From a virus (lineage: Duplodnaviria; Heunggongvirae; Uroviricota; Caudoviricetes): a DNA stretch of 17,813 nt. Under the pieces are notes generated by a model, which had not been told where the DNA came from, ran no database searches, and worked only from the letters and a program-made list of their open reading frames with translations. This document shows, in pieces, positions 7,796 through 11,623 of the stretch. The stretch lies in the IMG/VR virus record IMGVR_UViG_2529292871_000023; one strand, written 5' to 3'. The number at the start of each line of letters is the position of its first letter. The first letter of the stretch is position 1. The position numbers and the translations under genes were made by a program.

Positions 7796-8234
7796 AAAGG
7801 TGAAAACCGGCAGTTCATCCAGTAAGTCAGTATTGACCTGGCTTGCTGATATGTGCGGTGCCGATTTGTGTGCATACCCGTCTGTATCTGCACTGGCAGA
7901 AGTAACGGAACTGAACAAAAAGACTGTGCAGGACAGCTTACGACACCTGATGGAGATTGGGTTAATTGTTGATACCGGTGAGAGAAAAGGCAGAACAAAG
8001 CAAATTGTGGTGTACCGACTTATCGGTGTAGAAGAAAGTGTTGCCGAGCCTGAATACACCCAAAAACGGGAGTCTTTAAAGGTGGGTAAAATTGGTGCTG
8101 TTAATAAAAACAGTACCGAAAATGGTTATGTTTCAGCACAAAACAGACCCAAAAACAGAACTCTTAGCTGCATGGAAAATAACCAAAGACACCCAAAAAC
8201 GGATCACGGAACCCAAAGGAACCCAAAGATCTAA
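7767..8234 (+). CDS. Replication initiator (lambda O-like) N-terminal DNA-binding segment; frame ends inside the iteron-like repeat region
   Basis: MSIDALRWAKKVKTGSSSSKSVLTWLADMCGADLCAYPSVSALAEVTELNKKTVQDSLRHLMEIGLI... is a replication-initiator-type winged-helix domain. The ORF starts at 7692 in the track, but ATG 7767 is preferred. Confidence 0.6.
   Translation: MSIDALRWAKKVKTGSSSSKSVLTWLADMCGADLCAYPSVSALAEVTELNKKTVQDSLRHLMEIGLIVDTGERKGRTKQIVVYRLIGVEESVAEPEYTQKRESLKVGKIGAVNKNSTENGYVSAQNRPKNRTLSCMENNQRHPKTDHGTQRNPKI
8140..8232. repeat. Iteron-like direct repeats (ACCCAAA[A/G]), candidate replication origin inside the O-like gene
   Basis: ACCCAAA at 8147-8153, 8191-8197, 8211-8217 and 8221-8227, plus the variant AACCAAAG at 8182-8189. 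Position mirrors lambda ori, which sits within O. Confidence 0.4.
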
Positions 8235-8284
8235 ACCCCACACATAACGCACGCGAGAGTGCTCCGACCAGTGAGCAGGAAGTT

Positions 8285-8785
8285 TTGTCGTTACAGGCAG
8301 CCCCCCCTGTATTCCTGTATGGCCTGAGCGAACCCATCGGAAAATTCCCGATGAGCGATAGCTGGTATCCGTCACGGGATTTTCGACGACGGGCTGCGTT
8401 GTGGGGGATGGCTTTGCCGGAGACAGAATTTACACCTGCTGAACTTGCCGCCTTCCGGGACTACTGGGCAGCGGAGGGGAAAGTGTTTACGCAGATTCAG
8501 TGGGAGCAGAAATTCGCCCGTCACGTAAATCACGTCAGGGCGCAGGTTAAACCAGTCAGCAAGGGGGTAAACCATGCAGCAGCACCAGGTGGCACCGCAT
8601 CACGGGCAGTTCAGGAAATTCGGGCAGCACGTGAGCAGTGGGAACGTGAAAACGGATTTATCAGCGACGGAAACGGCCTGGAAGCTGTGGGAACTCATGG
8701 GGGTGGTTTATTCGAACCGCTGGATCCAGAAGAACGGGGCCGCACCTTCGAAGCTCTGGATTGCACAGATTGGCGCGATGACTGA
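8285..8785 (+). CDS. O-like replication protein, C-terminal segment; this frame is open from 8183 and its real end is probably near 8570
   Basis: Frame reads ...PMSDSWYPSRDFRRRAALWGMALPETEFTPAELAAFRDYWAAEGKVFTQIQWEQKFARHVNHVRAQVKPVSKG. Beyond about 8574 the P-like frame is the one with family similarity. Removing one G from the G5 run at 8563-8567 places a TAA stop directly before the P start. Confidence 0.4.
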   Translation: MSLQAAPPVFLYGLSEPIGKFPMSDSWYPSRDFRRRAALWGMALPETEFTPAELAAFRDYWAAEGKVFTQIQWEQKFARHVNHVRAQVKPVSKGVNHAAAPGGTASRAVQEIRAAREQWERENGFISDGNGLEAVGTHGGGLFEPLDPEERGRTFEALDCTDWRDD

Positions 8786-9239
8786 GCAGCAAATCCGGCA
8801 GGTCTGCCGCCAGTGCATGGACCGCTGCCGGGCGGGTGAAACATGGCCTCCGGACCTGGCTGAGTTTGTGGCACTGATTTCGGAAAAGCGGAGCAATCCA
8901 TTCGGTCTGACGGTGGATGCTGTGATGGAGGAGTACCGCCGCTGGCGCAATGAGTCCTGGCGATACGACGGAAGTGATAAGTACCCGTGGTCTCAGCCTG
9001 TGCTGTATCACATTTGTCTCGAGATGCGTTCAAAGGGGATCGAGCGTCAGATGACCGAAGGGGAGTTAAAACGACTTGCAGAACGGCAGCTGACGAAATG
9101 GGCAAAGCATGTTGGTAACGGCCTCAGTGTTCCGCCAGTCCGGCGGCAACTGGCGGCACCCAAACGACCGTCGGGACCAACGCCAATTGAGTTGCTGAAA
9201 CAGGAATATGAGCGCCGGAAAGCGGCTGGTTTTGTATGA
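8574..9239 (+). CDS. Replication protein P-like (lambda P family helicase loader)
   Basis: 221 aa. Segment PPDLAEFVALISEKR...EEYRRWRNESWRYDGSDKYPWSQPVLYHICLEMRSKG...ELKRLAERQL parallels lambda P (PSPGQFVAWCREEA...YPWKSNAHYWLVTNLYQNMR...AELRRKAADEL). AGGGGG ribosome-binding site 8 nt upstream. Confidence 0.75.
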   Translation: MQQHQVAPHHGQFRKFGQHVSSGNVKTDLSATETAWKLWELMGVVYSNRWIQKNGAAPSKLWIAQIGAMTEQQIRQVCRQCMDRCRAGETWPPDLAEFVALISEKRSNPFGLTVDAVMEEYRRWRNESWRYDGSDKYPWSQPVLYHICLEMRSKGIERQMTEGELKRLAERQLTKWAKHVGNGLSVPPVRRQLAAPKRPSGPTPIELLKQEYERRKAAGFV

Positions 9240-9270
9240 TTGAGAAGTGATTTTTACCGGGAGGAAATTT

Positions 9271-10005
9271 ATGGAGACTGTTTTTGACGCACTGAAAGCG
9301 ATGGGAAAAGCCACGTCGGTAGAGCTGGCTGCGCGACTTGATATCAGTCGTGAAGAAGTACTGAACGAGCTGTGGGAACTGAAAAAGGCTGGCTTCGTTG
9401 ATAAAAGCGTATACACCTGGCGTGTGGCTGATAACAACGTTCAGCAGGAACAGCCAGCGCCAGAAGAAACCACCACGGCAACAGAAGCGAAAATCTCAGA
9501 GTGCGATTTAACCGCGACGATTGAACAACGCGGACCACAAACGGCGGATGAACTGGCTACGCTGTTCGGTACAACATCCCGCAAAGTTGCTTCAACGCTG
9601 GCAATGGCAATCAGCAAAGGTCGTCTGATTCGCGTAAACCAGAACGGTAAAATTCGTTACTGCATACCAGGTGATAATTTACCAGCAGAGCCGAAAGTTG
9701 AATCGGTAGCGGAAACCGATGGTAAAGCCTTTCCTCAGCCAGCCGGTGTTGCGTTACCGGTACAGAAAGATGCAACACAGGAAGATATTAAAACAGAAAC
9801 TGTGGCGGACATTGTGCAGTCGCTGCCATCGTTTACTGCAACGCGAGAAGATGATTTGATTTTGCCATCGCTGCATATGGCAAATCGCGAACTGCGTAGG
9901 GCGAAGAATCATGTCCAGAAGTGGGAGCGAGTCTGCGCCGCGCTGCGGGAGCTGAACAAGCACCGGGATATGGTTGCCGGGATTTGTCGGAAGTCCGGGC
10001 AATGA
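9271..10005 (+). CDS. Hypothetical protein with two winged-helix-like segments
   Basis: 244 aa from ATG 9271 with GGGAGG ribosome-binding site. Repeated HTH-like segments [28 protein letters not shown] and [30 protein letters not shown]. Confidence 0.55.
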
Positions 10006-10864: not shown

Positions 10865-11623
10865 ATGAGGAACATAATGGCAGGTTTTTTAATATTCCTG
10901 TCTTCTGCTGCTTATGCTGATATCAATCTGTATGGTCCTGGTGGCCCGCATACAGCCTTGCTTGATGCAGCCAAACTTTATGCCGAAAAAACAGGTATTA
11001 TAGTGAACGTTCATTACGGCCCACAGAACAAATGGAATGAAGATGCCAAAAAAAATGCAGATATCTTGTTTGGCGCATCAGAACAATCTGCTCTGGCTAT
11101 CATTCGGGACCATAAAGACAGCTTCAGTGAAAAAGATATTCAGCCTCTTTATCTGCGAAAAAGTATTTTACTGGTAAAGAAAGGTAATCCTAAAAATATC
11201 CGGAGTATTGACGACCTGACCAGACCTGGGATTGGCGTAATTGTTAATGATGGTGGTGGTACCAGTAATACATCAGGCACTGGCGTCTGGGAAGATATTG
11301 CCGGACGTAAAGGGAATATAGAAACTGTCGCCGCAATCCGAAAAAATATTATTTTATATGCGCCCAATAGCGGAACTGCACGTAAGGCTCTTGAGAATCA
11401 GCCTGGAGCAGATGTCTGGATAACCTGGGCTGACTGGGCAGCCAGTAATCCAGAAATTGGTGATGTCGTGGAAATAGCGCCAGACTACGTGATATGGCGT
11501 GATATGAACATTACAGTACGTCAGGATGCAAATGATGAAACCCGTCGATTTGCAGAATGGCTACAAACCGATGAAGCGGCGCCTGCATTCAAAAAATATG
11601 GCTGGACCAGGAAAGGCACTTGA
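10865..11623 (+). CDS. Orphan periplasmic substrate-binding protein (ABC-transporter-type binding-protein fold, ModA/sulfate-binding-like), moron
   Basis: 252 aa. N-terminal signal peptide MRNIMAGFLIFLSSAAYA. AAGGAG ribosome-binding site. Preceded by about 400 bp of AT-rich DNA. No permease or ATPase gene adjacent. Confidence 0.75.
   Translation: MRNIMAGFLIFLSSAAYADINLYGPGGPHTALLDAAKLYAEKTGIIVNVHYGPQNKWNEDAKKNADILFGASEQSALAIIRDHKDSFSEKDIQPLYLRKSILLVKKGNPKNIRSIDDLTRPGIGVIVNDGGGTSNTSGTGVWEDIAGRKGNIETVAAIRKNIILYAPNSGTARKALENQPGADVWITWADWAASNPEIGDVVEIAPDYVIWRDMNITVRQDANDETRRFAEWLQTDEAAPAFKKYGWTRKGT

Follow-up and report, generated by a model that had tools for sequence, protein, structure and literature searches.

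A putative lambda-type origin inside a replication initiator gene broken by a 22-bp deletion in a PPompW-type prophage

The DNA analysed here, referred to below as the window, is the whole 17,813-nt stretch of the IMG/VR virus record IMGVR_UViG_2529292871_000023. It aligns collinearly, with 98.4% identity, to the left end of the lambdoid prophage that lies beside ompW in E. coli O55:H7 USDA5905, and several of the 19 small indels that separate the two fall in homopolymers. The genes and sequence features are listed in Table 1; like the replication initiator gene, the exonuclease gene is broken in the window. The same replication module is present in 11 deposited 'PPompW' prophage or Stx2a phage records. 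No DnaA box (TTATCCACA, at most one mismatch) and no IHF consensus was found in 7000-9300, and promoter and terminator predictions in 6400-9400 showed no excess over shuffled sequences.

Table 1. Genes and sequence features of the window, with positions counted from its first letter.
Feature	Position	Strand	Remarks
Integrase	1-1284	-	
Excisionase, exonuclease, dicB region	between integrase and 6549	-	from USDA5905 annotation
dicA-like repressor	6549-6956	-	
cro/dicC-like	7033-7260	+	
YdaT	7244-7795	+	
Replication initiator	from 7767	+	
N-terminal initiator fragment, 155 aa	7767-8234	+	winged-helix-type DNA-binding domain; phrog_1032 'replication initiation protein', E=2.6e-50
Iteron 1	8053-8076	+	AATACACCCAAAAACGGGAGTCTT; full core CCCAAAAACGGG
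Lowest-G+C stretch of the gene	8060-8199		A-rich top strand; 33-38% vs 45-60% in flanks
Weak degenerate iteron-like site	8115-8125	+	ACCGAAAATGG; 3 mismatches to core
Iteron 2	8142-8165	+	AACAGACCCAAAAACAGAACTCTT
C-terminal initiator frame	8183-8785	+	DnaT DNA-binding domain (about 8345-8545) and tail; stop TGA 8783-8785
Deletion junction	8184-8197	+	sole remaining copy of 14-bp direct repeat CAAAGACACCCAAA; two copies 22 bp apart in intact relatives
Iteron 4 of the intact array (third in the window)	8186-8209	+	AAGACACCCAAAAACGGATCACGG
Two tandem 10-bp half-iterons	8208-8227	+	GGAACCCAAA
Shine-Dalgarno-like AAGGGGG	8561-8567	+	includes the G5 run; 6 nt before ATG 8574
P-like helicase loader, 221 aa	8574-9239	+	PF06992, E=9e-17; phrog_109 'P-like helicase loader', E=2e-61
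DUF1627	9271-10005	+	

The initiator of the window is divided between two reading frames. The N-terminal frame starts at ATG 7767 and, owing to a frameshift, ends early at TAA 8232-8234, while the C-terminal frame is open from 8183; the two overlap only inside a set of short repeats, confirming the earlier note, which had placed the frame switch within the repeat region. In intact relatives, such as E. coli E2865 (WP_000020556.1) and phage Stx2_14040, the same region is one 1041-nt gene for a protein of 346 aa, and this intact CDS was found in E2865 and in 11 phage records. The fragment encoded by the N-terminal frame is identical to the intact protein through residue ~143 and retains the entire N-terminal domain. 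This domain matches Pfam HTH_36 at E=1e-4 and 22.5 bits, under the cut-off of 25, and the initiators of phiV10 and EPP-1 score above that cut-off; with scores lower than for phrog_1032, it also matches several 'replication initiation O-like' families. The DnaT domain in the C-terminal frame is recognised by PF17948 at E=7.2e-17 (61 bits; cut-off 25). The tail that follows matches other phage initiator profiles, phrog_1408 and phrog_3992, and is thus not specific to this clade.

The repeats share the heptamer ACCCAAA, which occurs at 8058, 8147, 8191, 8211 and 8221, always on the + strand. Such repeats inside the O-like gene had been reported from the first reading of the sequence, and the report holds, with four copies in 8147-8227 and a fifth at 8058. 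Both strands of the whole window contain 7 copies against 3.2 expected, only two of them outside 8058-8227. Among all 7-mers counted in 170-bp windows, ACCCAAA forms the top cluster with its five copies; in 300 dinucleotide-preserving shuffles the best 7-mer reached 3 copies per 170 bp, and no shuffle (0/300) reached 4. A longer core, CCCAAAAACGG, is matched exactly at 8059 and 8192 and with a single mismatch at 8148; it shows partial dyad symmetry (CCC...GGG), like the lambda iterons. Intact relatives carry six direct repeats and the window five, in the linker-coding DNA of codons 97-165, immediately behind the N-terminal domain. The full core is confined to iterons 1 and 4 of the E. coli element, the remaining copies being degenerate, and their spacing of 89, 44, 22, 20 and 10 bp is less regular than that of the 24-bp arrays of phiV10 and Vibrio phage Her. 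Core matches with three mismatches are frequent across the window, and the site at 8115-8125 is not significant by itself. By analogy with lambda, the stretch of lowest G+C content is a candidate unwinding region, although it sits amid the iterons and the A+T-rich tract of lambda lies to one side.

The core CCCAAAAACGG is also present in the linker behind the N-terminal domain of homologous initiators from eight other phages or prophages, where the arrays begin at aa 91-108, directly after the homologous domain. One is Edwardsiella phage EPP-1, whose N-domain is 58% identical to that of the window; the first of its five copies is identical to iteron 1 in core and 3' flank, CCCAAAAACGGGAGTCTT, and stands at the same codon (aa 98). 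N-domains of lower identity are followed by the core in phiV10 (38% identical; ATCCCAAAAACGGGAT, about six copies), Vibrio phage Her (35%; CCCGAAAACGGTAC, 5 copies with a 24-bp period), Burkholderia phage Bcep176 (39%; AACAGTCCCAAA..., about 8 copies), Acinetobacter phage LZ35 (35%; AATGAACCCAAAAACGG, 3-4 copies) and Edwardsiella phage GF-2 (36%; ATCCCAAAATTGGGAT, 5 copies), and a prophage of Enterobacter cancerogenus (L140) has about 6 copies. A scan of IMG/VR for two exact CCCAAAAACGG cores 6-28 bp apart identified at least 120 viral contigs, where by a rough estimate fewer than one would be expected by chance. Among the 120 matches listed, 110 had the pair in an open frame with a homologous N-domain upstream (HMM E<1e-3), at a median distance of 20 aa from the end of the domain; 6 other contigs among these matches carried the same array in non-coding DNA. 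The iteron sequence tracks the type of N-domain, since other types either lack CCCAAAAACGG or have repeats of their own, one of them with eleven copies of TGTCACGAC. The recurrence of one core behind homologous N-domains supports the suggestion of the earlier note that the repeats behave like iterons at the position of the lambda origin. Judged from these sequence comparisons, the repeats are very probably iterons belonging to an origin of the lambda-O type that is embedded in the initiator gene.

A different reading of the array, namely that it is the DNA shadow of a low-complexity protein linker with P-K-N-G-like peptides and has no function as a DNA site, appears quite improbable. P, K and N are abundant in the linker, and the arrays of phiV10, Vibrio phage Her and Edwardsiella phage GF-2 repeat with a 24-bp period in one codon phase, giving 8-aa peptide repeats, so that in regular 24-bp arrays a role at the protein level is not fully separable from one at the DNA level. 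In the window, however, the motif copies occupy codon phases 1, 0, 2 and 0, and both here and in Bcep176 all three phases are used and differing peptides are encoded (TQK, RPKN, HPN, TPKN, NPKE), which indicates that the repeat is conserved as DNA and not as peptide. The nucleotide core is moreover kept between initiators that are only 35-58% identical, has the partial dyad symmetry found in lambda iterons, and recurs in the non-coding arrays of the viral contigs mentioned above.

The putative iterons can be placed within a known plan. The lambda origin, with four 18-bp iterons and an A+T-rich tract, lies in the middle of O, between the N-terminal iteron-binding domain and the C-terminal domain, as do the origins of the Stx phages 933W and P27 (PMC3349717, PMC7466680). 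The present locus resembles lambda in this position, in its direct-repeat iterons of CCC...AAAAC...GGG design (for example, lambda ATCCCTCAAAACGAGGGA) and in the gene for a P-like helicase loader directly downstream. The resemblance extends to modularity. In E. coli prophages, four types of N-domain (that of the window, the DUF1376 type of phage Rac-SA53 and two others) join one C-part from LNPTHNARESAPTSE, at about 8228, so that the mosaic boundary falls right after the last repeat; the N-domain with its iterons thus appears, as in lambda, to be a specificity module, and the C-domain with P the common machinery. The locus differs from lambda in several respects. Its core spans about 11-13 bp instead of 18 bp, its iterons are irregularly spaced, and the A+T-rich DNA is found among them instead of at their side. 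The C-domain is DnaT-like and not the C-domain of lambda O. The N-domain is only remotely related to that of lambda O: the initiator of the window gave no match to Pfam PF04492 (lambda O) and the intact initiator no significant BLASTP similarity to lambda O, and the two are linked at the level of profiles only, phrog_678 and phrog_345 being matched by both N-domains and phrog_391 joining the present type of N-domain to a lambda-O-type C-domain. Finally, initiator and P genes overlap by 212 nt here and by 4 nt in lambda.

Two other systems share parts of the module. The 'replication initiation protein (DnaT family)' of phiV10/epsilon15-type phages (Uetakevirus) has the same combination of an HTH_36/phrog_1032 N-domain and a DnaT domain, with iterons at the same position in the gene and a P-like gene downstream. 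The two proteins share 38% identity, and phiV10 has a regular array (18-24 bp period) and an intact initiator gene that overlaps P by only 4 nt (ATGA). The Rac-type ydaU-ydaV module of phage Rac-SA53 is close in the C-part from LNPTHNARES, in the tail and in P (about 87-92% identical) and has the same long initiator/P overlap, but it carries the DUF1376 N-domain and no CCCAAAAACGG iterons.

Taken together, the region is very likely the replication module of a lambdoid PPompW-type prophage next to ompW, with an origin lying within an initiator gene that has been broken by a 22-bp deletion. The intact element encodes one 346-aa protein consisting of a winged-helix-type N-terminal domain, a linker, a DnaT-like C-domain and a tail. 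By analogy with lambda, the N-domain would bind the iterons in its own gene and form a nucleoprotein complex, the neighbouring A+T-rich DNA would open, and the DnaT-like C-part with its tail would recruit the P-like loader and host DnaB. The window has lost 22 bp by slippage or recombination between 14-bp direct repeats, and with them iteron 3 and the reading frame. The gene now yields the 155-aa DNA-binding fragment and leaves the DnaT-like part with no obvious translation start, so that the prophage should fail to begin its own replication and should be replication-defective. Origins inside the initiator gene, iterons as specificity modules and decay by repeat-mediated deletion are all textbook features of lambdoid phages.

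The same plan probably applies to a widespread class of temperate-phage initiators with an HTH_36-type N-domain and often a DnaT-like C-domain, for which CCCAAAAACGG provides a recognisable core that might serve to mark origins when prophages and viral contigs are annotated. In a literature search whose scope excluded older subscription-journal papers, no description of this iteron core for its N-domain family was found; the motif as a text string retrieved unrelated primers only, queries on phiV10 iterons retrieved nothing, and those on DnaT-like prophage iterons and epsilon15 iterons nothing relevant. The searchable literature likewise yielded no description of the conserved long initiator/P overlap or of the RefSeq P start discussed below.

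The junction between initiator and P had been read in the earlier note as resolvable by one base, the removal of a G from the G5 run at 8563-8567. The arithmetic is correct: TAA 8568-8570 is offset by one from the initiator frame and stands directly before ATG 8574, and with one G fewer the sequence would read AAG GGG TAA, then ACC ATG. No relative, however, has an indel in this run. Relatives carry A at 8563 in place of the window's G, a synonymous A-to-G difference in the initiator frame (AAA vs AAG, both Lys), and in Rac-SA53 the triplet 8568-8570 is GGA and not TAA. The initiator frame as it stands reads on to 8785. We compared nine sequences, 85-99% identical, over the overlap. Between 8574 and 8657, 7 of the 10 variable sites were synonymous in the initiator frame and 1 in the P frame, whereas between 8658 and 8777 the corresponding numbers were 2 and 11 of 18 (Fisher tests between the two intervals: initiator frame, p=0.003; P frame, p=0.016); the single-frame regions flanking the overlap showed the expected third-position bias. 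Purifying selection on the initiator frame therefore extends for about 28 codons beyond ATG 8574, to about 8655, selection on the P frame begins at about 8660, and the rest of the initiator tail, which ends at TGA 8783-8785, is free to change; one relative has a stop codon inside this tail. In a prophage of Enterobacter cancerogenus, initiator and P overlap by a comparable 215 nt, and this overlap likewise ends in ATGACTGA. The 212-nt overlap is thus natural and not an error, and the resolution by a single base does not stand.

The P start itself, ATG 8574 with its Shine-Dalgarno sequence, had probably been placed correctly in the earlier note. Beside the strong Shine-Dalgarno sequence, this choice is favoured by the presence of the ATG in all nine sequences, by the phrog_109 alignment, which runs from residue 19, and by homologues of 215-223 aa from Enterobacter, Klebsiella and Symbiopectobacterium, 53-70% identical, that cover 96-100% of the 221-aa frame. 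RefSeq relatives have P starting at the equivalent of 8778 (153 aa), which removes the conserved segment AWxLWExMGEIYSNRW...WIAQIG. By these comparisons the RefSeq protein is probably too short, and the RefSeq P start for this replication module likely represents a systematic error, with 153 instead of 221 aa.

The overlap could be given a further meaning if initiator and P-like loader were a partly fused functional unit, produced either by +1 frameshifting or by a real gene fusion, but we regard this as highly improbable. Where selection passes to the +1 (P) frame from that of the initiator (about 8655-8660), there is no conserved start codon. One lineage (P0112, P0099) has the DnaT part and P in a single frame, as apparently does PHROG family 15931, and the fusion joins the two exactly at the selection switch (WERxxG, then 7 aa, then WxLWELM). 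Were the fused unit real, the 212-nt overlap would be a regulated feature and not an accident. We considered the P0112/P0099 fusions as a 'Rosetta stone' and rejected them in this role: at their locus the N-part is broken and the C-terminus of P frameshifted, and the fusion itself may be decay.

We return to the preferred reading of a deletion-broken initiator gene and to the lesion itself. Alignment to E2865 and phage Stx2_14040 showed that the window and USDA5905 are without the 22 bp CAAAGACACCCAAATTTTCCAT, which writes the missing unit in one register, its endpoints being ambiguous within the repeat. The missing stretch is one unit of a 22-bp direct duplication, the repeated part of which is CAAAGACACCCAAA, and it carries iteron 3; its loss has the effect of a one-base frameshift and leaves the array one iteron short. 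Alleles were counted in 5426 complete E. coli genomes with 40-mer junction probes, designed to leave the alternative allele without a 28-mer seed; counting by identity bands was dropped because megablast would not bridge a 22-nt gap. The undeleted 22-bp unit was present in 885 genomes (964 places) and the deletion allele of the window in one, O55:H7 USDA5905. In a separate lineage, which includes 2013C-3277 among others, a single GGAACCCAAA unit is left of the tandem pair that lies 20 bp downstream; this 10-bp deletion is out of frame too and was found in 26 genomes. These counts establish the frame break as a real, rare, derived lesion, neither a read error nor the normal state. Relatives show a single open reading frame, and not two separate proteins with the boundaries seen here, an arrangement that the earlier note had named as evidence against its reading; the two-frame form is that of the one genome in 5426. 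The split of the initiator gene is ordinary prophage decay, which shows elsewhere in the window too, in the 19 indels relative to USDA5905 and in the exonuclease gene.

A function for the split gene, either through -1 slippage at C CCA AAA (8192-8198) or through blockage of phages with the same origin by the fragment and the iterons, is a very slight prospect. The heptamer is in the right frame for a -1 slip to enter the C-terminal frame. Ectopic iterons together with oop RNA silence the replication of rep-lambda phages in lambda (PMC3349717), and the 155-aa fragment keeps the whole N-domain. Against this, RNA structure downstream of the heptamer does not exceed that of shuffles (z=+0.68) and intact relatives have one open reading frame; with no downstream structure and no conservation of the arrangement, a programmed -1 frameshift at this site was rejected. 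Nor does an allele of such rarity show any sign of upkeep by selection, and the neighbouring exonuclease gene has decayed as well.

Least credible is the proposal of sequencing or assembly errors behind both the frame break and the long O/P overlap, hiding an intact initiator that ends with TAA just before ATG 8574: the small indels, several of them in homopolymers, that separate the window from its closest relative and the one-G arithmetic speak for it, but the break is a deletion flanked by 14-bp direct repeats and not a homopolymer miscount, its junction is shared with the independent complete genome of USDA5905, and the lack of indels in relatives at the G run, the selection on the initiator frame past 8570 and the Enterobacter overlap have already largely refuted it. 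Resequencing, which the earlier note had proposed as a check, is accordingly not the remedy.

With the deletion taken as genuine, the locus offers a clear case of iterons in coding DNA as deletion hot spots, two independent out-of-frame deletions having occurred within about 60 bp among E. coli genomes, although its biological weight is small. Small lambda ori- deletions are likewise repeat-mediated and lie inside iterons within coding sequence. The classical lambda ori- mutants keep the reading frame and have a cis effect; in the window, by contrast, the loss is out of frame and has destroyed the initiator as well.

The frames of the O-like initiator and of the P-like helicase loader overlap in the window, and any given part of this overlap is under constraint in one frame only, with the changeover around 8655-8660. 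In the RefSeq records for E. coli, P begins at the position equivalent to 8778, giving a protein of 153 aa. Because this start would remove from P a segment that is conserved across genera, ATG 8574 (221 aa) fits better as the start codon. Met42 of P (ATG 8697) is unchanged in 16 of 16 aligned sequences, namely the window and 15 homologues. In some records one frame runs through both the DnaT domain and P, and there the join falls exactly at the point where selection switches frame in the window. The fusion at locus L141 may be decay rather than design, since in the same locus the N-part is broken and the C-end of P is frameshifted.

Coordinates of the features discussed in the window and in related loci
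Feature	Location	Strand	Remarks
Initiator/P frame overlap	window 8574-8785	+	212 nt
Counterpart of this overlap	L140 (Enterobacter cancerogenus prophage) 2501-2715
DnaT domain and P in single frame	P0112 / L141 1864-2760; P0099; phrog_15931
TGTCACGAC repeats	L010 (E. coli JNE120393) 929-989 and 1210-1259		~11 copies in two clusters, in N-terminal half of initiator
Broken exonuclease gene	window 1576-4046	-	823 aa in related prophage
paa (AcfC-family adhesin)	window 10865-11623		from collinearity with E. coli O55:H7 USDA5905

The initiator of L010 has the same C-part as that of the window and a different, unnamed N-domain; the TGTCACGAC copies are presumably iterons of that N-domain's specificity type. 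The same arrays as in initiator genes (CCCAAAAACGGG and CCCAAAATTGGG) were also found in six IMG/VR contigs (L047, L091, L101, L107, L113 and L120), where they include one copy in opposite orientation. None of the six frames of this array DNA is open past ~100 aa, and the N-domain gene is absent from the examined locus in five of the six contigs. These non-coding arrays may be intergenic origins, or may belong to elements borrowing the initiator of a helper phage.

Differences between the window and its closest relatives are patchy and concentrated in the 3' half of P (8883-9236), and several 1-kb bins elsewhere have zero differences. This uneven pattern suggests mosaic recombination instead of a uniform divergence. 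The exonuclease gene lies in at least three separate open frames, cut by several indels that include a second 22-bp deletion near 2479. The USDA5905 collinearity also places hokD and a fimbrial gene, which is broken, close to paa; all three look like virulence-related cargo lying downstream of the replication module.
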